Assembly (NCBI GenBank): GCA_964406495.1
Contig: CAYOSB010000002.1
Location: 5,044-69,043, forward strand
Direction: 5' to 3'
From: an uncultured Bacteroidaceae bacterium
GTDB lineage: Bacteria; Bacteroidota; Bacteroidia; Bacteroidales; GCA-2748055
DNA: 64,000 nucleotides
The notes beneath the pieces are model-generated. The model did not search any database. It was given only the letters and a program-made list of their open reading frames with translations, and had not been told where the DNA came from. The position numbers and the translations under genes were made by a program. This document shows positions 3,048-61,848 of the stretch, piece by piece (within the stretch, counting starts at the first letter, position 1; every line of letters begins with the position of its first letter).

Positions 3048-3326
3048 AATACCATTAGTTGATTTGAACTGTTAAAAGTTGTACCATCTGATTGTTGGAT
3101 GATCTCCCTCCGGCATTATCCCGTAAAAGATCAAAGCCGTAAAAAATTCAATATACCACAAAGTGAATAATCATTGATTAAAAATTAATTAAATTTTCAC
3201 CTGTTGATTCAATAAATAATTGTTTCTTTTACTTATGTGATTTCACTTATTAAAATTACCAATTTAAAAGTAACCTGGATGAAATCCTCTCCAATATTCT
3301 CAGGTATTTATTTGAAACAAAGACTA

Positions 3327-14401: not shown

Positions 14402-14754
14402 GGTGTCAGATGTGATTTATTCACAAAATAAACAAGGAGGAATAATAATTGATTAAAGTTTGATTAATAAGTTTGATAAAACTTTATTTTTAATTGAACT
14501 CAGCCCTCCTGGAATTTTTTTTACTTCTATACATCTAATACACTATTAACTCACTTCAATGACGCGAATTATGTGGTTTAAAACAAGATCAAAATACTTC
14601 TGGTAGTTATCTCCTTTTCAATAACATTTTATAGTATTGATACAGACTCGTATTTCATGACATTAAGCTTTTATTAATGAACTGTTATTTAGATTACCTT
14701 AAATTGGATTCAGATATTATTTCGAGCCTGACTCATTTATCAAAAAAGCAAAAT

Positions 14755-33307: not shown

Positions 33308-34297
33308 TCAATTTTTTTTGGCATATTCTTCCGCCATGTAAGGCCCCCGCATTTCTCTCAGTGCTTGCAGCCACCAGCGTATCCCGGGATTTTCTTCTGT
33401 CCCGTCACCGCCCGGATCTGCATTCGGTCCATGTGGCGGCACACACTGCAGCCAGGTGGATGCACACATGTATCCCCAACCATTTTCAAAATGATTTTTC
33501 GTCTTATCTATCTGATCAGCTTTCATCTCGTCTGTGTAAAGCCCGATATTGATGTAATTTTCCAGGGGAGGAGCCTTGCTGTAGCTTCCCCAATATCTGA
33601 CCGTTCCGGGGGTTCCTTCAGACTCAATGTAGGGTTTATCGGGATCTTTATGACTGAAATGTATGCCCAGGTCGGCTTCTTCAGGAGGCAGACCACGAAA
33701 ATTTGTTGCAATATAATAGCTTGAGTCAACCGCCTTTGCAGCCCGAACCATTCCTTCCGGGTCAAAACCCATTGCACGTTTGGCCATTCCTTCGTTGTCT
33801 ATATCCACAAATACATTCCGGAAATCGTTCTCTTTTAAAAATCTGACGGTATTTGCAACAGCATTATTCGCCTCTTTCTGTGTCCATGATTCCCATTTTG
33901 CGGTTGAACCTCCCCAGTACAAACAACCCACCAATACGATCATTCCTTTTTTATTGGCTGCTTTTATGATTTTTGCGAGACGATCTGAATACACTGGATT
34001 CAAACTGCCATCCTCATAATAACCTTTAAAATTCCCATACCTGGAACCCATTACATACACACTAACGGTGTTCACCCCATATGACTTGTACTCGTCCATG
34101 TACTCAATCAATTCATTTGTCGACTGTTCTGAATACAAGGCATTCGAACAACGCAACCCGGCAACCAGGATTTCCTGCTCGTTCAGGCAGGTCTTGTCTC
34201 CTTTCACAGAGAATACATAGTCCTTGTTGGTGCACTGCTGAAATACAATCAGGGTGACCAGTGCCAGGATGATTTGTTGCAGTTTAAAGATGTCCAT
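33308..34297 (-). CDS. Secreted TIM-barrel glycoside-hydrolase-like protein (clan GH-A-like), unclassified
   Basis: 329 aa. Lipoprotein-like signal ending QQCTN. GVNTVSVYV, and VFVDIDNEG with an Asn-Glu pair like the GH-A acid/base motif. The family was not recognised with certainty. Confidence 0.55.
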   Translation of the reverse strand: MDIFKLQQIILALVTLIVFQQCTNKDYVFSVKGDKTCLNEQEILVAGLRCSNALYSEQSTNELIEYMDEYKSYGVNTVSVYVMGSRYGNFKGYYEDGSLNPVYSDRLAKIIKAANKKGMIVLVGCLYWGGSTAKWESWTQKEANNAVANTVRFLKENDFRNVFVDIDNEGMAKRAMGFDPEGMVRAAKAVDSSYYIATNFRGLPPEEADLGIHFSHKDPDKPYIESEGTPGTVRYWGSYSKAPPLENYINIGLYTDEMKADQIDKTKNHFENGWGYMCASTWLQCVPPHGPNADPGGDGTEENPGIRWWLQALREMRGPYMAEEYAKKN

Positions 34298-44041: not shown

Positions 44042-45496
44042 TTATCTTGTTGATTCATTTGCCCGGATACTATCCAGCTCCTCCAACAGTTGACTTGCGA
44101 TCTCCGGGTGTTCTTCAAACAGGTTTTTGCTTTCTGCAGGATCATCCGACAAGTTGTACAATTGTGGCCCAGTTATGCGTATTCTTTCTTTTCTTGCCTC
44201 GGGTAGCTCTTCAGGCAACCAGTCATCAATGTATTTCCATTCGCCCATGCGCAATGCCTGCATCCCGTGCATGTCGGCAGTAACAATCGACTTCCTCGGT
44301 GTGGTTTCCTTCTTGCCCATCAGGGCGTTGTAGAAACTGTGGCTGTCAGGCGCCACATTCATATCCCGCGGTAAACCATCACCTGTGATGTCGGCAATGG
44401 TGGCAAATACATCCATCACACCAATGATGTCGTCTGATGCAGTGCCAGGCTGCACCTTGCCTTCCCACCAAACGATGAAAGGTACCCGGGTTCCTCCTTC
44501 CCAGATGGTATGTTTGTCTCCGCGGAGGTCGCCATTGATTTTCAAACCGGCATTAATAGCCTGGATCTCCGGAGCTTCGGGCCTGTTACCCGGTATTTCC
44601 CCTCCATTGTCGCTTGTAAAAATGACGATTGAATTCTTTAACAATCCCTTATAGGCCAGCGTTTCAAGAATTTTTCCGACACTCCAGTCCAGGTCCTGTA
44701 TAAAATCACCATAGGGTCCGCAATTGCTCATTCCCCGCATATAATTGGAAGGAGTAATGGGATGATGTACCGCTACAGGGGCAAAATAAAGGAAAAATGG
44801 TGTTTCACTGCTTTGCAGCGACAGCCAATCCAGGGTCTTCTCGGTCAGCACCTCCATGGTCTCAGTATTGAACCGCTGGGGAGCGTCAAAGCCATAATAC
44901 TGCGGGCCGTAAAAGGTCCGCGAATAAGGTTCTATTTTATCGCTACGTATCCCGTAGATATGGTCATTCTCTATATACACCCCCATTTTATCACCATGGT
45001 TCTGGGGCACCCCAAAATGATAGTCGAATCCCAGGTCCAGTGGCCCGGGCTTCAGGATACCGGTGTACTCCTCAAGTGTACCTGTTGTTCCATACCCCAG
45101 GTGCCACTTGCCTACCGCGGCAGTATTGTACCCGAGCTCCTTTAGCCAGTCAGCGATGGTGGTCCTGTCAGGATCAGGCAGCAATGGACTTTCCACTCCC
45201 CAAACACCATATTTAAGTTTCGATCGCCAGGGGTAGCGTCCGGTAATAAAACTGTACCGGGTGGGTGTACAGACGGATGCAGCGGTATAGGCACTGGTAA
45301 ATTTCATGCCATTTTCCGCGATTTTGTCAATATGCGGGGTGCGCACCAGGTCTTCATCAGCTCCATATGAGTTCAGGCTGGTATATCCAAAATCATCTGC
45401 CAGGATGAATATCACGTTGGGGCGGTCCTGTGCGTTGGTCAAAATGCTGCAGCAAAGCACGACAGTAAAAATCAATATTAAGTTTAAATGTTTCAT
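44042..45496 (-). CDS. Arylsulfatase (Cys-type)
   Basis: 484 aa. Motifs PNVIFILADDFGY, AASVCTPTRYSFITGRYPWRS and GKWHLG. Confidence 0.95.
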   Translation of the reverse strand: MKHLNLILIFTVVLCCSILTNAQDRPNVIFILADDFGYTSLNSYGADEDLVRTPHIDKIAENGMKFTSAYTAASVCTPTRYSFITGRYPWRSKLKYGVWGVESPLLPDPDRTTIADWLKELGYNTAAVGKWHLGYGTTGTLEEYTGILKPGPLDLGFDYHFGVPQNHGDKMGVYIENDHIYGIRSDKIEPYSRTFYGPQYYGFDAPQRFNTETMEVLTEKTLDWLSLQSSETPFFLYFAPVAVHHPITPSNYMRGMSNCGPYGDFIQDLDWSVGKILETLAYKGLLKNSIVIFTSDNGGEIPGNRPEAPEIQAINAGLKINGDLRGDKHTIWEGGTRVPFIVWWEGKVQPGTASDDIIGVMDVFATIADITGDGLPRDMNVAPDSHSFYNALMGKKETTPRKSIVTADMHGMQALRMGEWKYIDDWLPEELPEARKERIRITGPQLYNLSDDPAESKNLFEEHPEIASQLLEELDSIRANESTR

Positions 45497-45673: not shown

Positions 45674-47854
45674 TCACCCTGCTTTGGCTATTTTTATATC
45701 CTCAGCCACCCATTCAGTGATTTTCACCCAATCGACATATCCAACCCTGTTGGTCCACAAAGGATTGACATTTTGCTGAAGTGCATTATCAACATATATT
45801 TTCCAGGCTTCTAATGCATTTTCCAGATCTGAAATTGCTGCTTCCTGGTAAGTCTTGTCTTTTGTCTCTCTGAAAAGCGCCAGGTTCGTGGAACCGGAGA
45901 TCTTATAAGCATAGTAATTACCCAGTGAAGCCATTGTTCTTATATCCTGCAAAGTGTATTTTAATTCCTGGTTATCTTCCGGATTCATCGTTTCAATTAT
46001 ACGGAGCGCTTTCTGAGCGCGCTCGCTTAACATCTCTGATACTTCGAAAGGAGATTTTAGATCTGTGGTATTACCTTTAATCTTCATTGTGACAAATTCC
46101 GGTATAGACTGAAAGCCTGCTTTTTTGTGTGTTCCGAGACTAATGAAGCGGTTGACATCGTGAAAACCAGTCTTATTTCGCGCATAACCAGCCCTGCTTT
46201 TGCATCCTTCGATGTACCATTGAAAATCGAGTGGTCCCCAATGAAAGCCTGTCGTAATCGGATAGATCATTGAAGCTTCCTGCCATGCTGTAAATAATTT
46301 TTGTGCCTCGACTTCAGGGTAACGAAATTGTAATAATTGAATGAACCGTTCATTTGAAAGTTCGGGATTATACCCCAGTCTGCCCCAGATCATCCAATGG
46401 TACCAGTGTTTGACCACCTCCAACTGGCGCGGTTCCATTGCCTCCTTCATTAGAAACTCTCGGCCCCATACCCATTGGTCAGAACCATAGTAAAAACCTC
46501 GTGAAACATCATAAGGAATATTTTGAATAAACTCCCTTACAAAATCAGGCGCACCCCAGCGGAAATAGTAATTATCATCATTTCGCAGGGTCCAGATAGT
46601 TTTCATGCCCTGGATCTCCTCGACAAATCCATGATGGTATGGTTGTTCAGTGGCGCTCATCACATGCGCCTTTGCATATTTAAAACTAAAAATGAATTCA
46701 ATGTTGTTGTGCTGGACCAGGGGGGCGAATTTTTCAGCAATATCGAGTGCTCCGGTCTGGTGCTGCCGGTGGATGAATGTGAATTTCCTGTCCGGCATTT
46801 CGGCTGCGGCATCAAGTAAACCCATGGCATAGGTATCAAAGGCCCAGTCTTCCTTTTCCTCTACACTGGATCCTTTCATATTCTCACCAGTAGTGAGCCC
46901 GATCCCTGCCAGGTCGGGATAGGTCAGGAACATCTGCTTTACACTTTTTCGAAAATAATCGCGTGTTACCGGATTATCAATATCATCGGTGATACCGTTT
47001 TTTCCTTCTGTACCATTCATAAAAATATTCCACGTAATAACATAAAAATCAACATTGCGCTCTTTTCCATATTGCATCACCTTCTGCCAGAAACTAATTT
47101 TTTCATCGATACTCATCTTTATCAAAGTTTCCGTATTGCCCAGAATTTCAGGAGCATCATATCCGGTTCCACTCAGATTATAATGTTCTTTCCAGTCAAC
47201 GGTAGAACGTTTCACATCACTGAGCGCAATCTCCTCGTAACCCGGCACTTTGACAAGCGAAGGGAACGGATGTAGGCTCCATAGTGAAATGAAATTGAAG
47301 CGGTATCGCGCCATTTGGTCGATGTATGCTTTCCAGAAATCAAAACTCCACATCTCAGGAATGTTCTTCTGGGCAGCATCACACGCGTCGGTATAGCTCG
47401 GGGTGCGCACATCCAGTGGGATATTAAATTTGGTGCCCCGCATCTTCATATAAGGATCCTGGGATTGGTTGGTGACATCGTCAAAGCCGAATATCCGGAT
47501 CTGTTCGGCAAGTTCCAATCCTCCGTACATTGCGCCCGCGTCATCTGTGGCTGTTATAATAATATTATCCTTCTCCCTGGCAATGGTAAATCCTTCGGCT
47601 TCGATCGATTCCAGCCCTGGTTGAACAGAAATAATAATATCCGCCTGTTGTACATCGTCTACAATTAACTTAATTCCCCGTTCAGAAAAAGAAGATTTGA
47701 TTTCCTGCAAGGCAAATTCAATTTGTGGACTGTCAGTATACGCACCAGCAGAAATTACAATGTGTCCCGCCTGCTTATCGCAACCTGTGATTAACAGAAG
47801 TACAATACCGATATGTGATAAAAGCTTAATAAACCAAGGAATTCCTGTTCTCAT
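45674..47854 (-). CDS. Uncharacterised glycoside-hydrolase-like lipoprotein (GH20b/GH67N-like N-domain plus putative TIM barrel); paralog of 53653-56508
   Basis: 726 aa. Lipoprotein signal LLITGCDK. The block [20 protein letters not shown]...[66 protein letters not shown] is shared with the 951 aa paralog. I could not place it in a named CAZy family. Confidence 0.75.
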
Positions 47855-48001: not shown

Positions 48002-48691
48002 TTATAATCTCAATATCTTTACATTCCTGTACCACACCTCGTAGCCATGATTTTGTAAATCGATATGGCCAAAGGGCGATTTTCCAAAGAAGGGATTATT
48101 TTTCCATTTTGAGTCGGCAACCTGCTGCTCCCAATCCTCCGAATACATCTGGCATTGCATCACGATCACGCCATTGACCCAGTGGGTCACCAGGTTATTG
48201 GAAATCCTTATTCTGCCTGAATTCCATTCCATGGCAGGATTCACAACCTTGTCCTCTGATGTGGGATATACATCGTAAAGGGAACCTGTGGATGTTTTAT
48301 CGAATACACCCGGGTCGTCAAAAACCTGGTATTCTGGTCCTGTAATATAGGGCCTTCTCCACTGAACTCCTTCCCGGGTTCTGTAAATAACTCCACTGTT
48401 TCCTTTTTCTTCGATTTTCCATTCGAATTTCAGATCAAAATCGGCAAAAGCCTCAACCGTCATCAGGTCATCTCCACCTTTTTTACCATCGCAGTAGATC
48501 GCATTTTCCTTTACGGTCCAGGACTTCGGAGCGTCTCCGTTATAGGCCTTCCATCCATCCAGGGTCTCACCGTTAAACAGGTTAATCCATCCCGTGGCAA
48601 ACTCCTCCGGAGTCAGAGTATTCTCTTTTTCCTGGGAAAAAACAGTTAAGTGAAAAACCAAGAATGCTGAGATCATCAGTATGTGCTTCAT
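48002..48691 (-). CDS. Secreted DUF1080 (3-keto-disaccharide-hydrolase-like, concanavalin-fold) protein
   Basis: 229 aa with a signal peptide. Motifs WINLFNGETLDGWKAY, WTVKENAIYC, NSGVIYR, EYQVFDD, and HIDLQNHGYEVWYRNVKILRL at the C-terminus. Confidence 0.85.
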   Translation of the reverse strand: MKHILMISAFLVFHLTVFSQEKENTLTPEEFATGWINLFNGETLDGWKAYNGDAPKSWTVKENAIYCDGKKGGDDLMTVEAFADFDLKFEWKIEEKGNSGVIYRTREGVQWRRPYITGPEYQVFDDPGVFDKTSTGSLYDVYPTSEDKVVNPAMEWNSGRIRISNNLVTHWVNGVIVMQCQMYSEDWEQQVADSKWKNNPFFGKSPFGHIDLQNHGYEVWYRNVKILRL

Positions 48692-48729: not shown

Positions 48730-50187
48730 TCAGAACGACCAGCCGTTATGATATGTATGCTTGATCCATTCGTTGCTCATTTCCAGTGCGTTTTGCTCTA
48801 CCCATGACTGTGCCTGGCGCTCCACTTTCCTGGTAACAATATCGCTTGAGAATGGGGACAACTTCGCTGTCCTGATCGTCTCGGATGCGCCAATATTGCT
48901 GACTTTCATGTTTTCGCTGTCCCATTCCAGGGTTTTTTGAAGCGATTGCAACCTGACAGCCAGGTTGCCCATGACCACCATTTCATTGAACGGACCGGCA
49001 TATCCAAAGTTAGATGATGGTACTCCATCATTCTTACAGCACTCCACGAAGTTCATTTCATGTCTTCCTCCACCCAGCGGATGATCCGGGATCCTGCCAA
49101 GATCCACTTTGGTCTGCGGCATAAACGCTTCCCCGTTCCTGTAGGTTTTCCAGTTAGCTCCATAGCTTTCCGCGATCAGTGTACCTTCGGTTCCTATGAA
49201 CATAAACCCTCCTCCCGGCTTCATCGGGGCATCATTTGGCAGGTCATAGGGACGCGGAGGCATCAAACCTCCATCATACCAGGTGAGTTCCAGCTCCGGA
49301 AGTGCCTGGTAAGGCAGGTTCTTTCGTGCAGGAAACTTATAACTTACTTTGGAAGCTACCGGGGCGCTTTCAGTATTTACAAGCGAAGAACTGGCCTGGA
49401 AAGCGAAAGGGTGTCCCAGTTGAAGTGCGAAATTCGGAACATCGAGCAGGTGACATCCCATGTCACCCAGGGCACCCGTTCCAAAATCCCACCAGCCACG
49501 CCATATCCAGGGGTGGTATTCAGGATTATATCCACGCATTTCTGCCGGACCAATAAACAAATCCCAGTCCAGTGTTCGCGGAATTCTCACTACTTTATCA
49601 GGCTTTGGCATGCCCTGTCTCCAGATGGGCCTGTTCGTCCAAACATGTGCTTCCCGGATCACACCCAGGCAACCACTCTGAACAACTTCTGCAACTTCAT
49701 ACACCGTATCACTGGAGTGTCCTTCATTCCCCATCTGGGTAACCACACCCGCTTTTTTCGCCAGATCTGTAAGATACCGGGATTCCCACACAGAATGTGT
49801 CAGGGGTTTTTGAAGATAAACATGTTTTCCGAGTTCCATTGCTGCAGCTGCTGAAAGCGCATGCGTGTGATCAGGAGTAGCAATCACCACCGCATCAATG
49901 TCCTTCTGCTCATCGAACATTTTCCGAAAGTCCTGGTATTTTTTTGCATCAGGATACGTTTCGAACACCGGCTTCGCATAATCAAAGTCTACATCGCATA
50001 ATGCTACAATGTTCTGCCCGACCATGTTTCTCAGGTTCACCTTTCCTTTTCCTCCCACACCTATTCCTGCTATATTCAGCCGGTCACTTGGAGGAGTATG
50101 ACCAAGTCCGGAAACCGCAAAACTTGGAACAACAGTCAGGGCGAGTCCGCTTGCAGTGGCGTTTTTAATAAAATCTCTTCGTTGCAT
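48730..50187 (-). CDS. Tat-exported Gfo/Idh/MocA oxidoreductase (GH109-like architecture)
   Basis: Start moved to the Met at 50187, giving the Tat motif MQRRDFIKNATASGLALTVVPSFA. Motifs NIAGIGVGGKGKVNL and YLQKPLTHS. The gene is 38 bp upstream of the DUF1080 gene on the same strand. Confidence 0.9.
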   Translation of the reverse strand: MQRRDFIKNATASGLALTVVPSFAVSGLGHTPPSDRLNIAGIGVGGKGKVNLRNMVGQNIVALCDVDFDYAKPVFETYPDAKKYQDFRKMFDEQKDIDAVVIATPDHTHALSAAAAMELGKHVYLQKPLTHSVWESRYLTDLAKKAGVVTQMGNEGHSSDTVYEVAEVVQSGCLGVIREAHVWTNRPIWRQGMPKPDKVVRIPRTLDWDLFIGPAEMRGYNPEYHPWIWRGWWDFGTGALGDMGCHLLDVPNFALQLGHPFAFQASSSLVNTESAPVASKVSYKFPARKNLPYQALPELELTWYDGGLMPPRPYDLPNDAPMKPGGGFMFIGTEGTLIAESYGANWKTYRNGEAFMPQTKVDLGRIPDHPLGGGRHEMNFVECCKNDGVPSSNFGYAGPFNEMVVMGNLAVRLQSLQKTLEWDSENMKVSNIGASETIRTAKLSPFSSDIVTRKVERQAQSWVEQNALEMSNEWIKHTYHNGWSF

Positions 50188-50481
50188 ATGAATTGGTTTT
50201 AGTTGGTTGTTGGTTGATTGCCTCTCACAAATATAAATTAACATGAAAACGATTAAGAAAAAATTAATTCTGGATAAATATCCATGCAGGTAAACCAATA
50301 AATCAATAAAAATAAATCAATAATTATTACGGGACTTATAATTGAAACAATGGCAAATCAAATCAAAACTCAACGCTTAATCCAATAATTGACACCTGAA
50401 TTCCTGCCTGTTAAGCATAATTTAATCCTTTTTTATATCCCTGAATCTATCTTTAATCAAGATTTAAATACAAATAACACT

Positions 50482-52806
50482 ATGAATACGTTAATTAATA
50501 GACTTTCTGTACTGTTGTTGTTAGCATTGGTCCTTGCTAACGGTTGTGAACAGGATCAACCTGAGAAAAAACAGCCTGTGGACTATGTGAACCCATTTAT
50601 CGGAACCATGGGCTCAGGCGAGCGAAAAAGTACAGATGGCAGGACCCATCCGGGTGCCTGCGTTCCTTTTGGCATGACCAAATGGATCCCTGCAAATATT
50701 GATGGTCCCAGCGATCCATACAAGTATGTGGAAGGAAGCAGACGAATGCGTCTATATCCGGAAATTATAAAAGAAGAAATATTCGGATTCAGGGGATCAC
50801 ATTATCCAAATGGTTCACACATGCGTGATTATGGAAGCTATGATTTTATGCCCATTGTTGGTAACCTGAAATTTACCACGGATGAGCGAGTATCAAAAAT
50901 CAGTCATGAGAAAGAATCGGCCTCCCCGGGATACTATTCAGTGTTCCTGGAGGATCATAAAACACTTGCAGAGATAACCGCTACCGAAAGAAGTGGATAT
51001 TTCAGGTTTTCATTTCCCGATACCAACCAGGTCCATATCATCACTGATACACGGATGGGTGATGGTTTTATTCAAATCGTGCCGGAAAAAAACCAGGTCA
51101 TAGGCTACGGAGGCTATTCATTTTTCGGAAGGACCAAAGGATATTTCGTGGCGCAATTCAGCAAAGATTTTTCTTCCTGGGGTACATGGGATCAAGAGGT
51201 TTCGGAAAAGGCAAAAGAAGTAAGTGGTGAACATGTAAAATCATTTGTCAGTTTTGATACCAACGGAGAGGAAACGATCGAAGTTAAAATAGGAACCTCC
51301 TTTATAGATATTGAAACAGCGCTCGCCAACCTGGAAAATGAAATCGGCAGCAAGAAATTCGCAGAAGTCAAAAAAGAAGCCAGGGAAGCATGGAATGAAA
51401 AACTAAGCAGAATTGAAGTTCAGGGTGGAACCGAGGCGGATAAAATCAAATTCTATACATCACTCTACCTGGTCCATTTCGAACCCAGGATTTCTTCCAG
51501 TGGCGGGCGATACTACAGTGTTTTTGATGAAACAATTCATGAGACCGGGGAAGGATCTGAATTCTACAATGATTTCTCCCTGTGGGATACCTATCGCAAT
51601 AAACATGCGCTCATGACCCTTCTTGAACCAAAGATTGAAGGCGATATGATGCAATCCCTCGTTAATATGTATAAACAAGGCGGATGGATTCCCAAATGGC
51701 CGAACCCTGGATATTCGAGTGTGATGATCGGGGCGCCGGCAACACCGGTTTTTGCTGATGCCTATTTGAAAGGAATCCGGAACTTTGACATAGAAACTGC
51801 TTATGAAGGTTTAGTAAAGAATCATACTGTTAAGCCTGATCCCAATGAGTTTAAGAACGGGATGAGATACAGGGGTATGGACGGAGTTGAAGACTATATG
51901 AAATATGGCTATGTTCCCTTTGATCTCCACAGCAGTTCTGCATCCAAGACTGTTGAAGCAGCATTTGCAGATTGGGCGTTGGCTCAACTGGCAAAAGAGT
52001 TGGGGAAGGAAGATGATTACGAATACTATCTTAAGAGATCCGGTAACTATAAGAACCTGATCGATACTGAGACAGGATATCTCAGGGCAAAAGACACTAA
52101 AGGAAACTGGATAGCGCCTTTCGATCCCATCTCAGAAGATGATTACCTGAACAATGGGCTGGATTGGAGACCCAGGGAAAACTACCCTTATATTACCGAA
52201 GGTACCCCCTTGCACTGGACCTGGCATGTAATGCATGATCCCCGGGGATTGATTCAACTGCTCGGGGGAAAAGAAAAGTTTACCGAGAAACTGGAGTTTT
52301 CCTTAATAAAAGGCGAACCTTACAATTTCGGCGAATGGAACCCATGGTTCAATCAATCTAATCAACCCGTAATGCATGCCGTGTATTTATTCAATGATGC
52401 GGGTGCGCCATGGAAAACACAGAAATGGATCAGGACCATCATGGAGAAATCCTATGGAACAGGACCCGACGGCATGGTCGGGAACGATGATGTCGGGACG
52501 ATGTCGGCATGGTATGTATTCAGCGCGATGGGCTTTTACCCGGTCGCCCCTGGAGAGCTAAAATACTCCATGGGAAGCCCGGTTTTTGATAAAATCATCA
52601 TTCACCTGCCGGAGTATCTCTATGGGGGGAAGGATTTCACGATCATTGCTGAAAACAATTCCCCGGAAAATAAATATATCCAGTCTGCAACTATCAACGG
52701 GGATTCGCTTAACAAGCCATGGATTGACCATACGACCATTAAAGAAGGCAGCACCCTTACACTGCAAATGGGAAACAACCCCAATAAGAATTGGGGGAAC
52801 AGGTAA
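50482..52806 (+). CDS. GH92 glycoside hydrolase (alpha-mannosidase family), more canonical type
   Basis: The track ORF starts at a TTG at 50389. The ATG at 50482 gives signal MNTLINRLSVLLLLALVLANGC. Motifs VDYVNPFIGT, HPGACVPFGM, FYTSLYLVHF and GNDDVGTMSAWYVFSAMGFYPVAPG. Confidence 0.9.
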   Translation: MNTLINRLSVLLLLALVLANGCEQDQPEKKQPVDYVNPFIGTMGSGERKSTDGRTHPGACVPFGMTKWIPANIDGPSDPYKYVEGSRRMRLYPEIIKEEIFGFRGSHYPNGSHMRDYGSYDFMPIVGNLKFTTDERVSKISHEKESASPGYYSVFLEDHKTLAEITATERSGYFRFSFPDTNQVHIITDTRMGDGFIQIVPEKNQVIGYGGYSFFGRTKGYFVAQFSKDFSSWGTWDQEVSEKAKEVSGEHVKSFVSFDTNGEETIEVKIGTSFIDIETALANLENEIGSKKFAEVKKEAREAWNEKLSRIEVQGGTEADKIKFYTSLYLVHFEPRISSSGGRYYSVFDETIHETGEGSEFYNDFSLWDTYRNKHALMTLLEPKIEGDMMQSLVNMYKQGGWIPKWPNPGYSSVMIGAPATPVFADAYLKGIRNFDIETAYEGLVKNHTVKPDPNEFKNGMRYRGMDGVEDYMKYGYVPFDLHSSSASKTVEAAFADWALAQLAKELGKEDDYEYYLKRSGNYKNLIDTETGYLRAKDTKGNWIAPFDPISEDDYLNNGLDWRPRENYPYITEGTPLHWTWHVMHDPRGLIQLLGGKEKFTEKLEFSLIKGEPYNFGEWNPWFNQSNQPVMHAVYLFNDAGAPWKTQKWIRTIMEKSYGTGPDGMVGNDDVGTMSAWYVFSAMGFYPVAPGELKYSMGSPVFDKIIIHLPEYLYGGKDFTIIAENNSPENKYIQSATINGDSLNKPWIDHTTIKEGSTLTLQMGNNPNKNWGNR

Positions 52807-52883: not shown

Positions 52884-53522
52884 TTAATCGAGCTCTTTGA
52901 TCCGTATGTTCCGGAAACTGTATACCTGGCCATCCTCTCCATGGTGCTGCAGGGCAATGTGACCTTTCGCATCCATATCGTCAGTATAATCTGTGCATAA
53001 TACATCGTTAACATAGATGCGCAGCCGGGTGCCTTCTGCATGGATCCGGTATTTATTCCAGCCGTAACGCTTAAATGATCCTTCTGTCTTTTCGCGGAAT
53101 GCATCTCCTGAAGGGGAATCATTGGGTTTCTGCGGATATAACCAGCCACGGCGTCCCTCATCGTAAAGTCCGCCCGACCAGGCACGGTCAGAAGCATCGA
53201 CTTCCGCCTGGTAGCCCCATACTTTGTTAGGCTTCACATGGCACCTGAACATAAATCCCGAATTGGATTTACCTTCCGGCAATTTGACCTCTCCCTCAAA
53301 GATAAAGTCAGAATAAGTATCCTCAGTAACGAGAAAGAACTTTTTGTCGGCAACCAGGTGAATTTCACCATCCACCACTTCCGCTTCTCCCCAGTCATAA
53401 GGATTCATCCATCCATTGAGAGTTGATCCGTCGAAAAGATCCACCCATCCCGCTCCACTTTCCCGTGGGGATGAAAAATTAAAAGCTGAAAGAACAAGAA
53501 TTGTTAAGACTAATGTTTTCAT
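52884..53522 (-). CDS. Secreted DUF1080 (3-keto-disaccharide-hydrolase-like) protein
   Basis: Start at the Met at 53522 (MKTLVLTILVLSAFNF). Motifs WVDLFDGSTLNGW, NSGFMFR, GYQAEVD and HIALQHHGEDGQVYSFRNIRIKEL. Confidence 0.85.
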   Translation of the reverse strand: MKTLVLTILVLSAFNFSSPRESGAGWVDLFDGSTLNGWMNPYDWGEAEVVDGEIHLVADKKFFLVTEDTYSDFIFEGEVKLPEGKSNSGFMFRCHVKPNKVWGYQAEVDASDRAWSGGLYDEGRRGWLYPQKPNDSPSGDAFREKTEGSFKRYGWNKYRIHAEGTRLRIYVNDVLCTDYTDDMDAKGHIALQHHGEDGQVYSFRNIRIKELD

Positions 53523-53652
53523 AATTAAATATTTATGAGTGTTTTGATAAGCATGAAATAATAACCGGTTTCTATAATGATGGTCGGTCGCACCGCAATT
53601 TCGCAAAAAATTCTGTTTATTCCCACTTGTGGCCTGTCGCTTTGATCATTTT

Positions 53653-56508
53653 CTACAGACGCCAGGGCTCCAGTTCCTCGCTTTTCCAAACGATTTCCCT
53701 TTTGCCTCCTGCATCTTCGCGAACTATCACCAGGCTTCTCCCGGCAGTAATCCCCAGCAAATAAGTACCCAGCTTTTCAATCTCCGGGGTTGTATAGGGT
53801 GTTGCTTCCACATTGCCGGGGGTACCACGATAGATCACCAGCTGTCCCCTTTCAAGGGCTACAAAATGCGGTGCACCATGGTCATTATGCATCATTGCTT
53901 TCCAAAGCATGCCCCTGGTATTTTCCGGGGAGCCATCATACAGGATCAGGCGGCCGTCATCCCGCAACCGGATAAAACACTCCAACCGGGGAAATTCAAA
54001 GACATCTTCATCGGTAAATATATCTCCCTCTTCGAGGATAACCTGGTGGATTTCATCCTGCCAGTCCATCGCCCGGTCTTCTGAAACAGATCCAATTGTA
54101 ATTTGGATCTCCCGTTTACCGATGGTCCCGGTATGGTCCTCAGCAACTGCCATGAGCTCATACACTCCCGGTGCCAGCCCTTTCAGTAATGGATCGCTTG
54201 CCTCGCTCCATGTCATTGGCTTTCCCCTGTGCGGCTTTAATTTCAGACCGTTGAAGTACAGCATAATTTCCCTGATACCATCTGCGTCCTCGGCCACCAA
54301 CTCTGCCCGCAGGTCGGTTCCTGCCGGCAATTCAATACCATCTGACAGGTTAGTAAAATGCACTTCGGGGGCATCTCCCTCCCGCCTGACGGTCTCAACC
54401 TCTTGCTCTACTTCTGATAAAATGCTTTCCCAATCCATATAACTGGTTCTTTGCATCAATTGAGACCTGTATTGCGATGAAACTATCGCTGTATATGCTT
54501 TCCATTCATCAACTGCATCTTCCAGGTGTGCAACGGCATCATCACTGAATTGTTTTTGCTGTGTGGTGACCCGAAACGCTGCCAGTTTGGCCGCACCACG
54601 CATTTTATCTGCATAATAGCGCCCCAGGTAAGCCATCGCCTCAATGTCATTTAACGTTTCGGTCAATTCTGCCTGTTCTGCAGCCTGTGCCCGCAAGTCC
54701 GGAATGAGTGCGAGTGCTCTTGCCGCATAAGTATCCAGTTGATCCGCTACCTGAAAGGGTGTGATTCCAGGTAACTGATCACCGTTCACAATGGCCTCTC
54801 CCCATTCCTGCACGGAGTGAATGCCAGATCCGATCATCGGCCAGAATGAAAAATTGTAGTCATCGATAGTAAGGAATCCTCTCCTGTCAATACATCCTTC
54901 AGGTGCAAGGTGTGCATCATTGGGACAGAAGGTGGCATTGTTGACCAGGGGTATAATTTCACCTGTGGCTGCCCAGGCATCATAAAGTTTCCCGGGATCA
55001 ATACCCGGAAACCGATACCGCAGGTTCGCCTCCCAGTAATCCCGTCCAAGATTTGGATCATACGCAAGCTCTCCCCACATGCGGAAACGGTACCAGTGTT
55101 TATCGATCTCCAGTTTTCCGGATGTTTCCGGGTTTTTGGAAATAAATTCACGTCCCCAAACATATCCGTCTGACCCCATATAAAATCCTGCCATCACATC
55201 ATGCGGCATCAATTGGATATAATCCCGCACATAATCCGGATTACCCCAGCGCAACACAAACATGTCATCGTTTCGCAGGTTGAGCCAGCTGCGAACCCAG
55301 TACTTCTCCACATCATCCCGAAACCAGCGGTCAAACAACTGTGGATGTCGGCCGGTATACATATGCCCGATCGCATATTTAAAACTGGTTTCAAATTTAT
55401 CGGGAAAATCCTCAAATGCAGTTGTTATGGGTCCCAGTCCTGTCATATGCCGGCGAAAAATGAACCGGACATTCCGCTCTGGTTGCTGTTCAAGTACATC
55501 CATGATGCCCCGTCCATAGGTGTTGAAGAGAAAATTTTCGATCGAGTACTGGCCCGCAATATGATTATCCGCATTTTCTCCAGCAGTGACCCCAATACCG
55601 GCGATCTGGGGATAGGTCTTCAGGGCCTCACGGACACATTCCCTCATGTAATCATTTGTAACAGGGTTGGTCTGGTCAGGGGTAATACCGTGTTTACCGG
55701 TCGCACCAAAGGTCATGACATTCCAATGAAACAGGTAGATCTCAATCCCGCGATCCCCTGCATATTCAAATACCATTTGCCAGTATTTGATCTTATCTTC
55801 GATCGGGATCTTTTTGACCAATTCAATTGTTCCTGGTTTTTCGAGGTCCACATCCTGCAACCTGTTTTTGTGTTCTGATTTGAATACACCTTCGCTGACA
55901 CGGTAAACATCATCAAGGGCTACTTCGGGAAAATCGTCCAGTTGGATGATGGAAGGGTAAGGATGTGTGCTCCAAAGGCTCAACACATTATAGCGGTAGC
56001 GTGCCAGGTCATCTAAATAGGCCTTCCAGAACTCAATATCCCAGACCGTTTCGATATTGTTCTGGGCATTGTCGCCAGTGTCATCGTATGAAGGGGTCCG
56101 GGCATCCCATGGAATATTGAATTTCATACCTCGTTTTCTTACAAAAGGCTCTTTTTTAACGTTTTCCACCGGTAATCCCAATCTGATCCGCTCAGCCAGT
56201 TCAATTCCACCGTACATTGCCCCATTTGCATCCGACCCGGTAATTTCAATGATCCCAGGTTGTACTAACAGGATTTCAAATGCTTCGGGCGAATCCCTGT
56301 CATGGCTGACGGACAGTGTTACATGGAGCGTTTGCTGTCCGGCTTCTGCAAGTGCACGTTCCAATTCGCCGGCAGCAAACGCCACCTGTGGAATACTTGC
56401 ATCATATTCAACCTGGGCAATGATATGATAAGGCACCAGGATTCCTGAAAAAAGCACCGAGAACAAAAAATATATTGATTTCTTCATCATAGGGTAGGTA
56501 TTTCCCAT
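53653..56508 (-). CDS. Uncharacterised GH-like protein (paralog of 45674-47854) with C-terminal Ig-like and bulb-lectin-like modules
   Basis: 951 aa.
- N-terminal and core blocks: NGAMYGGIELAERIRLG, RKRGMKFNIPWDARTPSYDDTGDNAQNNIETVWDIEFWKAYLDDLARYRYNVLSLWSTHPYPSII.
- C-terminal 114 aa: three repeats of the type CFIRLRDDGRLILYDG / HFVALERGQLVIYRG / YLLGITAGRSLVIVRED.
- The start may be 56490 (MMKKSIYF). Confidence 0.75.
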   Translation of the reverse strand: MGNTYPMMKKSIYFLFSVLFSGILVPYHIIAQVEYDASIPQVAFAAGELERALAEAGQQTLHVTLSVSHDRDSPEAFEILLVQPGIIEITGSDANGAMYGGIELAERIRLGLPVENVKKEPFVRKRGMKFNIPWDARTPSYDDTGDNAQNNIETVWDIEFWKAYLDDLARYRYNVLSLWSTHPYPSIIQLDDFPEVALDDVYRVSEGVFKSEHKNRLQDVDLEKPGTIELVKKIPIEDKIKYWQMVFEYAGDRGIEIYLFHWNVMTFGATGKHGITPDQTNPVTNDYMRECVREALKTYPQIAGIGVTAGENADNHIAGQYSIENFLFNTYGRGIMDVLEQQPERNVRFIFRRHMTGLGPITTAFEDFPDKFETSFKYAIGHMYTGRHPQLFDRWFRDDVEKYWVRSWLNLRNDDMFVLRWGNPDYVRDYIQLMPHDVMAGFYMGSDGYVWGREFISKNPETSGKLEIDKHWYRFRMWGELAYDPNLGRDYWEANLRYRFPGIDPGKLYDAWAATGEIIPLVNNATFCPNDAHLAPEGCIDRRGFLTIDDYNFSFWPMIGSGIHSVQEWGEAIVNGDQLPGITPFQVADQLDTYAARALALIPDLRAQAAEQAELTETLNDIEAMAYLGRYYADKMRGAAKLAAFRVTTQQKQFSDDAVAHLEDAVDEWKAYTAIVSSQYRSQLMQRTSYMDWESILSEVEQEVETVRREGDAPEVHFTNLSDGIELPAGTDLRAELVAEDADGIREIMLYFNGLKLKPHRGKPMTWSEASDPLLKGLAPGVYELMAVAEDHTGTIGKREIQITIGSVSEDRAMDWQDEIHQVILEEGDIFTDEDVFEFPRLECFIRLRDDGRLILYDGSPENTRGMLWKAMMHNDHGAPHFVALERGQLVIYRGTPGNVEATPYTTPEIEKLGTYLLGITAGRSLVIVREDAGGKREIVWKSEELEPWRL

Positions 56509-56657: not shown

Positions 56658-58253
56658 TCATTCTGATAATTCTTTAATAACTTCAGGGTGCTGTCTTGCT
56701 GCGTATTCCTCCTCTGTGACCCAGCTCAGATCTTTCCAGTAATAAGTATCATTCATCTGAAGTGGTCCAACTGTTGTTCGTCCATTTAATACGATATCAA
56801 TTGCTTTTTGCGTAAGCTCTGCAACAATTTCCGGATGTCTGGCAGCGACATCATTCTCCTCTGATGGATCATCGGATAAATTGAAAAGCGCTTTCTTATT
56901 ACCGGCAATATGGAAGATTAATTTCCAGTTGCCTTCAGTGATCGCATAGTCACCCCTGTTTGAATGATTGATCAAAGGCAATCTGGCATGGTTTGTTGTT
57001 GGCTTTCGCAGCACATTGGCAAAGCTGTAACTATCCACTCCTCCATCTGCCGGTAATTCGGCACCAATGATTTCAGCAAATGTTGCCAGCAGATCAACCT
57101 GACCAACAATCCCATTCCAGGTTCGGCCCGGGCTCTTTACGCCATTTGGCCATTGAACGATAAAAGGAACACGATGTCCGCCCTCATAGATCGAACGTTT
57201 ACCGTCCCTGTAAATGTAATTGCTAAAGTGTCCAAAATCGTCTATTCTTTCCCTCCATGAATTTTCCGGACCATTATCGCTGCTGAACACAACCAGGGTA
57301 TTCTGATCCAATCCGGATTTCTCAAGGTAATCAAGGATTTGACCGACATGATGGTCCGTTTCTATGACAAACTCGCCATAAGCTCCGGCCTCGCCCTGAC
57401 CATGAAAATCAGGTAAGGGACACACCGGGTAATGCGGAGAAGTATAGGCCAGGTAAAGAAAGAAAGGTTTGCCATTTTCAGCATCCGCCTTTTTCCCATT
57501 CATCCATTCAATAGCTTTGTCAGTGAAACGAGTCAGACATAAGCTATCCGCAAAATCCGGGGCCACCTCCATACCCCTTCTATTTAACAGCACTTTGGTT
57601 GCTTCCGGATTTTCCTGGTACGGTGGAATGATCCGGTAATCCACATGTCGTGCATTTGGTTTTTTCGCTGTATATAGTATAGGTGGCACTTTTGCATAGC
57701 GGCCTTCGAACCAGGCGAGGACTCCATAGTTTAATGATGCCGGTATGCCGTAGAAATATTCAAAACCTTTGTCCAGCGGCATATCCAAAACAGGCCTGCT
57801 CCAATCGCGATCCTCCGGGGTTCCGGGGAAGTCCATGCCGAGGTGCCACTTTCCAACCATTCCGGTATTGTATCCGTTGTCGCGCAACATCGAAGCCAGT
57901 GTCATGCGGTCATCGTTAATCAGGCACTCTGCTTCTGCTCCGAGTACCCCCCGCTTTTTTACGGTCCGCCAACAATAACGACCGGTCAGTAAACCATAGC
58001 GTGAGGGTGTACATACTGCATCAGCACTATGCGCATTTGTAAAAAGAATACCTCCTTTTGCCATGCGATCAAGATTAGGAGTTTCGAATTTTGCGTCCGG
58101 ATTCAACAGGCTCATATCTCCAAACCCCTGGTCATCGGTGTAAATAACAATGATATTGGGCTTTTCAGGTAAATCACCGGTGCAGGAGTGCATCACAGCA
58201 GCAATGACAATAAAACCAAAAGTGCTAATTATGATTGTCTTATTTAATTTCAT
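56658..58253 (-). CDS. Arylsulfatase (Cys-type)
   Basis: 531 aa. Lipoprotein signal VMHSCTG. Motifs PNIIVIYTDDQGFGD, ADAVCTPSRYGLLTGRYCWRT and GKWHLG. Confidence 0.95.
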   Translation of the reverse strand: MKLNKTIIISTFGFIVIAAVMHSCTGDLPEKPNIIVIYTDDQGFGDMSLLNPDAKFETPNLDRMAKGGILFTNAHSADAVCTPSRYGLLTGRYCWRTVKKRGVLGAEAECLINDDRMTLASMLRDNGYNTGMVGKWHLGMDFPGTPEDRDWSRPVLDMPLDKGFEYFYGIPASLNYGVLAWFEGRYAKVPPILYTAKKPNARHVDYRIIPPYQENPEATKVLLNRRGMEVAPDFADSLCLTRFTDKAIEWMNGKKADAENGKPFFLYLAYTSPHYPVCPLPDFHGQGEAGAYGEFVIETDHHVGQILDYLEKSGLDQNTLVVFSSDNGPENSWRERIDDFGHFSNYIYRDGKRSIYEGGHRVPFIVQWPNGVKSPGRTWNGIVGQVDLLATFAEIIGAELPADGGVDSYSFANVLRKPTTNHARLPLINHSNRGDYAITEGNWKLIFHIAGNKKALFNLSDDPSEENDVAARHPEIVAELTQKAIDIVLNGRTTVGPLQMNDTYYWKDLSWVTEEEYAARQHPEVIKELSE

Positions 58254-58380: not shown

Positions 58381-59958
58381 TTATTTCTCATCTTCATCCA
58401 GCGCGCGTTTACCTTCAAAAGCGTTCCACTTCAACCGGTCTTCTGTTTTTCTGTCGGCTAAATATACCTCTGGATCATAATCCGGATTGGGCTTGGGAAA
58501 ACGGGCCCGATAGGTTTCAAAGTAAGCCATCATCTCATCATAAAGCTCCTGGTGTTTTTCCGGGTATTCATCAGCGATGTTCACTACCTCTCCAGGATCT
58601 TTCGACAGGTCAAAAAGCATCGGAATTTCCGGTGATTCATAGAAATGAACTACTTTGTGTTTGCCTGAAATAATCGCTGAATGTGGTACAGAAGTACGAT
58701 AGTGGGGATAATGAAAATAAAGATGACGGTTCAGGAACGCTTCACCAGGTGTTTCTCCTGAAATGTAATCTGCAAGGCTGACCCCGTCAATATTCTGAAT
58801 TGCTTCCGGGAATCCGCCTGCCCAATCAACAAACGTGGGCAGGAAATCATAATTGATCACATTCCCTGCAAACACGGAACCGGATTCAATTCCCGGTCCT
58901 TTGACGATCATGGGCACCCTGATGCCACCATCCCAGTTCCACCATTTGGCTGCATGCAGTGGTTGTGTCAGTTCAGGATTGAGGTCCAGCTCGCTATGCC
59001 TGTAACCATTATCCCCTACCAATACAATATAAGTGTTATCAGCAATTCCAAGTTCTTCCAGCTTATCGAGCACAGCCCCGATCCTTCCATCCAGGTCCTC
59101 ACCCATAGCGAGCCAGTTCGCAGGATCCCGCTTGCGCTGGATCGTCTCGGGATCCATATTGTTTCTTTTGTACCAGTCCTGGACTGCAGGGTGATTGACA
59201 TACTTCTGCCGGGTCTCATTTAAACACTCCCTGCCCGCGTGCATGGCATAGTGAGAAATCTGGAGATAAAAAGGATTTCCCTGCTCCACCTGGTCCTCGA
59301 TAAAGTCAATTCCCTTTTCCGTAATACTGAACATCAGTTTAGGATCAGAAAGATCTTCAGGCAATCTTCTTGGATTCGGTGCTCCCGGTGGCAGGTTGTT
59401 CCGAAGCGTGTTTCCTTCGCTATTTGTAGTCGGACCATCATGTACTGCATAGCCATGCAGTTCCGGATCGCTCCTCATATGCCATTTACCAACATGGGCA
59501 CTTACATAACCATAGGGTTCCAATGCCTCCGGAATGGTAACCGATGCCGTATCAATTTCATAATCTGATACATTGGGTATCATCGGAAAATGCTGGTAAC
59601 TGTTGCTGTTGTCATAATACGCATCCTCGTTGTTCCCGAGGAATACGGTAAAGCCACTGCGGACGACTGACTGACCGGTCTGAACACACACCCGTGCCGG
59701 GGAGCACTGCGGCGATCCGTATGCATTACTGAACTTCATCCCTTCCTCAGCAAGCTTTTCGATGTTAGGCATTTCCAATACTGGCATAAATGCATTCTGC
59801 ATGGAATCAACCATTGGAACCGGAGACCCGTTCCATGCCCAGTCATCAATGTAAAACATTACGATATTGGGTCGTTCAACCGGTGGTGTCCCGCAGGAGG
59901 CAAAAACCAGGACCATGATAAGAATTGTGGATTTCAACAGATGCTTCAAAATTTTCAT
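58381..59958 (-). CDS. Sulfatase (Cys-type) with a conserved acidic C-terminal tail; paralog of 63596-64000
   Basis: 525 aa. Lipoprotein signal VFASCGTP. Motifs [30 protein letters not shown] and GKWHM. C-terminal tail [12 protein letters not shown]...[12 protein letters not shown]. Confidence 0.9.
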
Positions 59959-61743: not shown

Positions 61744-61848
61744 CAGTATTTTTTCCTTTACCTGCTGACAACTTTTTGTAAATAAATTCAAATGTGGCAT
61801 AGAGTCGTTTTCATTTATTACAGTGATAGATTTTTTCTTTCAAAAACG

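Follow-up and report, generated by a model that had tools for sequence, protein, structure and literature searches.

What do two large, unclassified glycosidase-like proteins do in a sulfatase-rich island of an uncultured Bacteroidaceae bacterium? The island lies on 64,000 nucleotides of genomic DNA (GenBank assembly GCA_964406495.1, contig CAYOSB010000002.1, positions 5,044 to 69,043 of the forward strand). This whole stretch is called the window, and coordinates without a locus label refer to it. A preliminary description, made by a model from the letters alone, had singled out the pair, named A and B here, and had the position and length of both open reading frames (ORFs) exactly right.

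45674–47854, minus strand: gene A, an ORF of 726 residues, a predicted lipoprotein (Cys25), GH138-like, with three domains.
53653–56508, minus strand: gene B, an ORF of 951 residues, predicted to be secreted, with an A-type three-domain core and two C-terminal beta domains.

Both proteins are clearly homologous, at a distance, to glycoside hydrolase family GH138 but are not GH138 equivalogs. They are most likely anciently diverged members of a large sister clade of that family, with formal CAZy placement possibly inside GH138. The two are true paralogues, with 37% identity and 55% positives over 706 aligned residues (BLASTP, E 2e-149), a likeness far above chance. The shared blocks start in A/B at residues 107/96 (GAMYGG), 142/129 (KFNIP), 150/137 (RTPSY), 173/160 (FWKAY), 182/169 (ARYR) and 190/177 (SLWS). 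All the blocks quoted in the preliminary description are present, with two trivial slips of notation: the residue before GAMYGG is Ala in A and Asn in B, not Asp/Asn, and the W-block begins with Met/Val and not Ile/Val. Read by eye, the translation of A carries a lipobox (LLLITG-C25) and that of B a hydrophobic signal-like segment ending in HIIA-QVEY, as expected for the lipoprotein or secreted pair that had been described.

The kinship with GH138 emerges from several independent comparisons. A phmmer search of PDB sequences gives one real match, the GH138 enzyme BPa0997 (6HZE, 6HZF and 6HZG; E 3e-18), and a profile of 43 family sequences matches BPa0997 at E 6.7e-35, with profile positions 14-690 on chain residues 8-667. 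The A-to-GH138 alignment stops at GH138 position ~667-673. For a GH138 reference set, BPa0997 was rebuilt from the alignment to the full protein (P0271, NCBI name alpha-d-galacturonidase) and joined by 119 relatives, with 39 sequences aligned. Profile-profile comparison (hhalign) of the A/B family with GH138 gives 99.9% probability and E 6.9e-33 over 619 columns. Foldseek searches against PDB entries up to April 2026 place GH138 6HZG first for both proteins, with template modelling (TM) scores of 0.74-0.77 for A and 0.75 for B at 16-18% identity, and return no solved structure closer to A or B than GH138. The preliminary description had held that no named CAZy family could be assigned; this does not stand, since both proteins are unambiguous distant GH138 homologues across the N-domain, barrel and helical domain. 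Its proposal of a new or poorly characterized family survives in the form of an uncharacterized sister clade of GH138, not as an unclassifiable protein. It had named a clear hit to a characterized family of known specificity as refuting its reading; GH138 is in part such a hit, but one whose specificity is not transferable.

Structural models support the same layout. AlphaFold2 (AF2) yields a mean predicted local distance difference test (pLDDT) score of 83 and a predicted TM score (pTM) of 0.88 for A, and 87.3 and 0.86 for B. By DSSP, both models share a core made of an N-terminal alpha/beta domain, a (beta/alpha)8 barrel and a helical C-domain. The main parts are placed as follows.

47489–47764, minus strand: N-terminal GH20b/GH67N-like alpha/beta domain of A, residues 31-122, with G107-A-M-Y-G-G (sub-threshold Pfam, DSSP).
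46445–47467, minus strand: (beta/alpha)8 barrel of A, residues ~130-470 (DSSP on the AF2 structure; hhalign match with the barrel of GH138).
53683–54375, minus strand: C-terminal extension of B, with an Ig-like beta-sandwich at residues ~712-806 and a second all-beta domain at residues ~820-942 (DSSP).

The N-domain of A matches PF03648 (GH67N) at E 7e-4, with 20.2 bits against a cutoff of 24.3, and PF02838 (GH20b) at E 3e-3; PF02838 is also precomputed in many A/B homologues. These matches bear out the earlier suggestion of an accessory domain of GH20/GH67 type, and the TIM (triose-phosphate isomerase) barrel expected after it appears with eight strands in both models. In the AF2 model of A, DSSP places strands 1-4 at residues 138-144, 188-193, 269-275 and 315-321 and strands 5-8 at 358-364, 385-392, 419-423 and 451-456; strand 7 of B spans residues 407-412. 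A Pfam search finds no family that covers the barrel of either protein. In the extension of B, the Ig-like region has a weak Big_7 match (E 0.025), and PF17957 is precomputed in many B orthologues. The last domain (residues 820-942; 53683-54051) shows only non-significant similarity to bulb-type, GNA-like (Galanthus nivalis agglutinin-like) lectins when compared with the PDB (E 0.4-1.1). Its strands repeat a '..G.L(V/I)(I/L)Y(D/R)G' pattern. The C-terminal modules of B are probably carbohydrate-binding or spacer units, and the last one may be a carbohydrate-binding module.

The question then becomes whether the GH138 active site has been kept. GH138 is reportedly a retaining family, attributed to Labourel and colleagues (JBC, 2019), with Glu294 as acid/base, Glu361 as nucleophile, and Arg332 and Arg521 binding the galacturonic acid (GalA) carboxylate. 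All four residues are invariant in the GH138 alignment (alignment A2, 39 sequences), and the title of PDB entry 6HZG names an E361S variant; both observations support these roles. The alignments put Glu324 of A and Glu311 of B at the acid/base site, Ala396 and Gly381 at the nucleophile site, and Arg363 of A at the position of the GalA-carboxylate arginine. The relevant codons are listed here.

46883–46885, minus strand: A Glu324, T-G-E-N after strand 4, equivalent to GH138 E294; predicted catalytic acid (HMMER, hhalign, MAFFT).
55576–55578, minus strand: B Glu311, A-G-E-N, equivalent to A E324 and GH138 E294; predicted catalytic acid (alignment, codon verified).
46667–46669, minus strand: A Ala396, K-Y-A-K-A-H after strand 6, at the position of the GH138 nucleophile Glu361; non-acidic (HMMER, MAFFT).
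55366–55368, minus strand: B Gly381, K-Y-A-I-G-H, at the GH138 nucleophile position; non-acidic (alignment).
46574–46585, minus strand: A Arg424-Asn425-Asp426-Asp427, immediately past strand 7; candidate site of the relocated second carboxylate of catalysis (conservation).
55264–55275, minus strand: B Arg412-Asn413-Asp414-Asp415, past strand 7; candidate site of the second carboxylate of catalysis (codons verified).
46478–46480, minus strand: A Asp459, G-S-D after strand 8; clade-specific acid at the barrel C-face, Asp in 136 of 145 sequences.
46766–46768, minus strand: A Arg363, strand 5, equivalent to GH138 Arg332; Arg in 140 of 145 sequences (HMMER, hhalign, MAFFT).

Conservation was read from 150 divergent representatives, each standing for one cluster at 50% identity. 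Position 324 is Glu in 137 and Asp in 7 of the 146 representatives that have a residue there. Position 396 is Ala in 123, Gly in 10, Thr in 5, Ser in 4 and Asp in 2, with no Glu at all, and residues 393-405 of A contain no conserved acid in this set. After strand 7, among ~146 representatives, R424 is kept in 140, N425 in 119, D426 in 130 (Glu in a further 10) and D427 in 130; K392 is Lys in 135 of the set. In B, E311 and R412-N413-D414-D415 are invariant in a further alignment (A3). Other near-invariant residues of the clade fall on strand 1 (R139, K142, N144, D148, R150), strand 6 (K392, Y393, H/R397), strand 7 (R424 to D427), strand 8 (G457, S458, D459) and a C-domain loop (D543, E549), and GH138 differs from the A/B clade at those positions, with Gln, for example, in place of D459. 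In the AF2 model, the conserved charged barrel residues lie 0-4 residues past the strands, at the catalytic C-face. The invariant basic residues of A are R139, K142, R150, K392, H/R397 and R424, which give the predicted active site a basic rim. Conserved acidic candidates, which the preliminary description had proposed to look for in both paralogues, are thus present as the strand-4 Glu, the strand-7 Asp-Asp pair and a strand-8 Asp.

A motif census of 497 sequences reveals two catalytic-motif configurations that are almost mutually exclusive.

A hits: strand-4 Glu, strand-7 pair and strand-8 acid present, strand-6 acid absent, in 119 of 120.
B hits: strand-4 Glu, strand-7 pair and strand-8 acid present, strand-6 acid absent, in 115 of 118.
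GH138 hits: strand-4 Glu and strand-6 acid present, strand-7 pair and strand-8 acid absent, in 119 of 120.

Counted by position, an acid at the strand-6 nucleophile site occurs in 0 of 120 A hits, 0 of 118 B hits and 119 of 120 GH138 hits, while the strand-7 acidic pair occurs in 119 of 120 A hits and 115 of 118 B hits and is missing from 119 of 120 GH138 hits. The either/or rule also holds in two further clades whose genes adjoin A orthologues. Of all the evidence, this covariation argues most strongly that the second carboxylate has moved from the strand-6 loop to the strand-7 loop and that the protein has not simply been inactivated.

Inactivation nonetheless deserves weighing: A and B might descend from a glycosidase and now bind glycans without catalysis, or they might use the scaffold for another chemistry, such as that of a lyase or esterase. 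The canonical nucleophile is gone, B carries extra putative binding modules and no activity is known for the clade. However, hundreds of divergent clusters from four phyla keep the acid/base Glu and some 15 polar C-face residues nearly invariant, a pattern more typical of active sites than of binding surfaces, and other carboxylates have been gained where one was lost. A non-hydrolytic role is very unlikely.

The opposite view, that A and B are ordinary GH138 alpha-D-galacturonidases releasing GalA from a glycan like rhamnogalacturonan II (RG-II) by the published retaining mechanism, draws on the same comparisons. GH138 supplies the only significant PDB sequence match and by far the best structural match, the acid/base Glu is kept along with the R332 equivalent, and the sole NCBIfam match of both proteins is NF049878, the 'alpha-D-galacturonidase' model. 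Yet that model scores just 102.6 bits for A and 97.9 for B against a cutoff of 1300, and the nucleophile Glu361 is replaced by Ala or Gly, never by Glu. The R521 position holds F544 or Asn-type residues in A/B, non-basic and in a poorly aligned, low-confidence loop. A lacks the fourth domain of GH138, B has other C-terminal domains, and the 64-kb window contains no pectin or RG-II genes, with ~16 sulfatases, GH92 and GH95 instead. An ordinary GH138 galacturonidase is extremely unlikely. GH138 specificity is not transferred to A/B because identity is 17-18%, the scores are ~100 against 1300 bits, the nucleophile is gone and the context is not pectin. Without an equivalog score, the nucleophile, the fourth domain or a pectin context, the two proteins are therefore not filed functionally as GH138.

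The balance of evidence favors A and B as glycosidases, probably exo-acting, for sulfated or uronic-acid sugars, with a relocated second carboxylate. In the mechanism proposed here, the strand-4 Glu (A E324, B E311) would donate the proton, and either Asp of the strand-7 pair (A D426/D427, B D414/D415) would act either as the nucleophile of a retaining enzyme or as the general base of an inverting one. Carboxylates on strands 4 and 7 are the classical geometry of TIM-barrel retaining glycosidases. The substrate would be an anionic sugar, sulfated, uronic or both, probably cleaved from a chain end.

Several points weigh against this relocation of the catalytic pair. The GH138 nucleophile E361 ('KYNGE') pairs with Ala396 by HMMER and MAFFT but with M399 by hhalign, through a three-residue insertion, and the loop that replaces it (A 394-396, B 379-382) is modelled at pLDDT <50. 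The catalytic role suggested for D426/D427 is drawn from conservation, strand position and covariation only. The literature searched yields neither a characterized member of the A/B clade nor a marine or sulfated-glycan use of GH138. In addition, A-orthologue neighbourhoods are heterogeneous (GH78, GH28, GH3, GH43, GH2, alginate lyase, Sde182-like and GFO genes), and their context singles out no one substrate.

An inverting course would bring A and B near the alpha-uronidases of GH67 and GH115, in which the strand-4 Glu would be the acid and water would be activated by the Asp pair of strand 7, on glucuronic acid (GlcA) or GalA branches of sulfated fucans or mannans. GH67 is the second-best structural match (E 1e-15, TM ~0.53), R363 is invariant, and the spacing from E324 to D426/D427 may resemble that of the GH67 acid and its two later-strand bases. 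The GH92 and GH95 genes of the locus would also fit fucose- and mannose-containing acidic glycans. Set against this, no sequence match to GH67 or GH115 catalytic domains is found, and the closest relative, GH138, is retaining. An inverting uronidase of this kind is unlikely, though the strongest of the rivals.

B-type genes are tightly linked to sulfatases, with a sulfatase at most one gene away in 6 of 8 loci; the two genes overlap by 4 nucleotides in Pontiella and are 2 nucleotides apart in Novipirellula. The recurring partner in the window lies two genes upstream of B.

58381–59958, minus strand: S1 sulfatase that accompanies B-type genes across phyla, recognized by orthology.
Locus L082 (Pontiella), 13264–14835: B-adjacent orthologue of this sulfatase.
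Locus L083 (Novipirellula), 12936–15248: B-adjacent orthologue of this sulfatase.
Locus L084, 12834–14441: B-adjacent orthologue of this sulfatase.
Locus L086, 6409–7974: B-adjacent orthologue of this sulfatase.

An orthologue of this sulfatase directly adjoins the B-type gene in 4 of the 7 loci outside the window, at 40-70% identity: 62-70% in L082, L084 and L086, and 40% in L083. These loci come from Kiritimatiellota, Planctomycetota and other lineages. Among solved structures, the sulfatase comes closest to the S1_16 kappa-carrageenan sulfatase 9FO1 (E 2e-58) and to N-acetylgalactosamine (GalNAc)-6-sulfatases; a galacto-configured sulfated sugar is therefore indicated somewhere in the pathway. 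B would act together with this dedicated sulfatase, which would either unmask its substrate or desulfate its product. A tentative extension of the relocated-carboxylate reading is that the family has a new specificity for marine sulfated or uronic sugars, with B and its S1 sulfatase forming a module in which desulfation comes before or after cleavage.

The same sulfatase also bears on whether A and B are hexosaminidase-like enzymes, releasing, for example, sulfo-GalNAc or sulfo-N-acetylglucosamine (sulfo-GlcNAc) by substrate assistance, with the Asp-Asp pair polarizing the 2-acetamido group as in GH84, GH20 and GH185. An adjacent acidic pair without an enzymic nucleophile is the hallmark of GH20 (D-E) and GH84 (D-D). 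A and B have lost the nucleophile and gained such a pair, GH20 and GH84 are significant fold matches, the conserved sulfatase partner of B has GalNAc-6-sulfatases and an S1_16 sulfatase as its nearest relatives, and GH185 provides a precedent for a sulfo-hexosaminidase with unconventional catalytic residues in the same superfamily (PMC10570127). However, the pair follows strand 7 and not strand 4, where an invariant Gly precedes the Glu, and no Pfam match to the GH20, GH84 or DUF4838 catalytic domains is found. The window likewise holds no pointer to a hexosamine glycan, and no hexosamine catabolic genes are seen there. This alternative is distinctly unlikely.

A-type genes keep more varied company than B-type genes. 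Clustering of 817 neighbour proteins from 77 A-type loci shows that sulfatases are the commonest neighbours (31 of 77 loci), followed by GFO (13), acetolactate-decarboxylase-like (11), Sde182/DUF1593-like (10), BNR_4 (10) and GH43+CBM6 proteins (8), aldo-keto reductases with a twin-arginine translocation (TAT) signal (8), GH3 (7), alginate lyase (6) and GH95 (5). GH78, GH28 and DUF4955 genes lie near A orthologues in Flavobacteriaceae and Prolixibacteraceae loci. The neighbour search of the A-type loci found no fixed neighbour gene. The acetolactate-decarboxylase-like proteins (PF03306, ~270 residues) directly adjoin A orthologues in 11 loci, as at L053 2161-2973 and L060 12158-12967. The Sde182 nucleoside-hydrolase-like proteins (PF07632/DUF1593) do so in 10, for example at L034 12117-13622 and 15793-17361, and at L012 6109-7437.

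Two further uncharacterized clades of the superfamily stand in tandem with A orthologues, at L012 (12169-14280 and 14302-16992) and L034 (712-3348 and 13633-15789), and also at L018, L029, L032, L040, L041, L042, L045 and L050. One, of ~700 residues, carries KFNWSH, RNED and GSE motifs and is closest to GH138 by BLAST, at 25-26% identity. The other, of ~880 residues, carries KY.WE, which keeps the strand-6 Glu, and WNGG, with no strand-7 acidic pair.

Profile searches show that the clade is large and widespread. Among 1.84 billion representatives, with clusters counted at 50% identity, the family profile matches 2746 clusters at E<=1e-3, 1752 at E<=1e-10 and 683 at E<=1e-30, spread over Bacteroidota, Planctomycetota, Verrucomicrobiota and Kiritimatiellota. 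A-type orthologues at 57-71% identity occur in Prolixibacteraceae/Draconibacterium, Saprospiraceae, Flavobacteriaceae (Seonamhaeicola, Maribacter, Hyunsoonleella and Algibacter), Cytophagales, Sedimentisphaerales, Pirellulales, Phycisphaerae and Opitutaceae/Verrucomicrobiae. B-type orthologues at 40-69% identity occur in Pontiella sulfatireligans, Novipirellula artificiosorum, Puniceicoccaceae and Synoicihabitans. A finds its nearest relative, at 92% identity, on a 6 kb contig of a metagenome-assembled genome that preserves the GFO-DUF1080-A order, and the next, from Prolixibacteraceae, is ~70% identical. Clade members carry no functional name, only 'hypothetical protein', 'Ig-like domain-containing protein' or 'GH20 zincin-like fold domain-containing protein'.

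The window itself contains ~16 S1 sulfatases (PF00884), three GH92, one GH95, three GFO-type oxidoreductases, three DUF1080 proteins, three PQQ-like propellers, an SSF transporter, an aldo-keto reductase and a zinc-dependent alcohol dehydrogenase. The wealth of sulfatases fits the sulfated-glycan locus that the preliminary description had named, and the gene order by Pfam also agrees with its placing of A and B at the flanks of a DUF1080/GFO/GH92/DUF1080 sub-cluster.

44042–45496, minus strand: S1 sulfatase directly downstream of A, same strand (PF00884, E 2e-54).
48002–48691, minus strand: DUF1080/3-keto-disaccharide hydrolase between A and B (Pfam).
48730–50298, minus strand: TAT-signal GFO, glycoside 3-dehydrogenase-like (NCBIfam NF058561 BT_2158_fam, 647 bits against a cutoff of 750).
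50389–52806, plus strand: GH92 between A and B (Pfam).
52884–53606, minus strand: DUF1080 between A and B (Pfam).
56658–58253, minus strand: S1 sulfatase directly upstream of B, same strand (PF00884, E 5e-52).

The GFO and DUF1080 genes suggest an oxidative (3-keto) route of glycoside cleavage alongside the hydrolases. Related sites elsewhere in the window, at 3237-4469, 29620-30990 and 60250-61800, hold two more GFO genes and a 516-residue DUF1080 fusion, and a trio of GFO, DUF1080 and aldo-keto reductase genes also lies near the B orthologue in L087. No SusC/SusD pair is found anywhere in the 64 kb. At least within the window, the locus is an island of carbohydrate-active enzymes (CAZymes) and sulfatases, not a canonical polysaccharide utilization locus (PUL). 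One of its sulfatases (8949-11861) bears a type IX secretion system C-terminal sorting domain, a mark of Bacteroidota.

Further genes complete the inventory. Three PQQ_2/BamB-like beta-propellers stand in a row on the minus strand, at 18504-21233 (909 residues), 22920-25592 (890 residues) and 25715-26938 (407 residues). One of them weakly matches a lambda-carrageenase propeller domain (PF25292, E 3e-11), and comparable propellers are encoded close to orthologues of A and B (L012, L085). Two more unassigned candidates are interspersed with the GH92 and sulfatase genes: a 436-residue ORF (14677-15987, plus strand) with no Pfam or NCBIfam match and a 329-residue ORF (33308-34297, minus strand) whose only match, to GH5, is sub-threshold (E 6.5e-4). 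Long ORFs antisense to the GFO gene and to B, at 49060-49854, 53629-54084, 53909-54442 and 55201-55878 (all plus strand), are almost certainly shadow ORFs and not real genes.

These proteins bear on a broader problem. Sulfated algal and microbial glycans form a major, partly recalcitrant pool of marine carbon, and most of the loci that degrade them still include 'hypothetical' proteins. The A/B clade is common in sulfated-glycan specialists such as Pontiella, Novipirellula, Puniceicoccaceae, Prolixibacteraceae and Flavobacteriaceae, and assigning an activity to it would close a recurrent gap in these pathways. A CAZyme without assigned function in a sulfatase island is a common sight; A and B stand out by the size of their clade, their rewired active site and their sulfatase partner. 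The conserved pairing of B with a sulfatase makes a directly testable two-enzyme system, and the motif switch between GH138 and A/B would exemplify the relocation of catalytic residues in the TIM-barrel glycosidase superfamily.

Comparison with known systems places the pair more precisely. A diatom sulfated alpha-mannan pathway combines GH195, GH92 and two sulfatases (PMC13063451); it was considered as a target of the locus and set aside, as GH195 is GH99-like and unrelated to A/B, and the pathway's four enzymes include no relative of GH138. GH163 and GH185 (Sp_0475, BT1035/BT1044) resemble A/B in joining a GH20-like N-domain to a barrel with unconventional catalysis, and GH185 acts on a sulfated sugar (PMC10570127). 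Both are DUF4838 families with a substrate-assisted mechanism that relies on D309 and Q174, and Sp_0475 is a 6-sulfo-GlcNAcase (PMC10570127). An identity of A or B with GH163 or GH185 was rejected, neither protein matching PF16126 (DUF4838) at E<=1.

The beta-N-acetylhexosaminidases of GH20 and GH84 match A/B in fold at TM 0.40-0.45, A has a GH20b-like N-domain, and the family profile weakly matches NagJ N-domains (E 0.06). These enzymes place their D-E or D-D pair after strand 4, whereas A/B have G-E-N there and no catalytic-domain match. GH67 alpha-glucuronidases (1K9D, 1GQL) share the three-domain layout of A/B at E ~1e-15 and TM 0.50-0.54, match the N-domain of A weakly through PF03648 and act on uronic acids. 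Their barrel has no detectable sequence similarity to A/B, with the sub-threshold N-domain as the only Pfam link, and they are inverting.

GH138 (BT0997/BPa0997) remains the closest known system, homologous to A/B over ~620-660 residues in the same domain order at 17-18% identity. GH138 and A have in common the strand-4 G-E (E294, A E324) and the strand-5 R-x-H (R332/H334, A R363/H365), and GH138 shares with both proteins the strand-6 K-Y, a strand-3 Asn, a strand-7 Asn and the W..D...R.N..LW.HP block of strand 2 and helix 1. The C-terminal fourth domain of BPa0997 (~residues 670-893) is not present in A, which ends at residue 726, and in B it gives way to the Ig-like and all-beta domains of the extension (712-951), with no match between the two. 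Residues K142, N144, D148, R150, R424, D426, D427, D459, D543 and E549 are invariant in the A/B clade only. In context, too, the families part: GH138 belongs to an RG-II PUL, whereas A and B belong to sulfatase-rich, marine-type loci.

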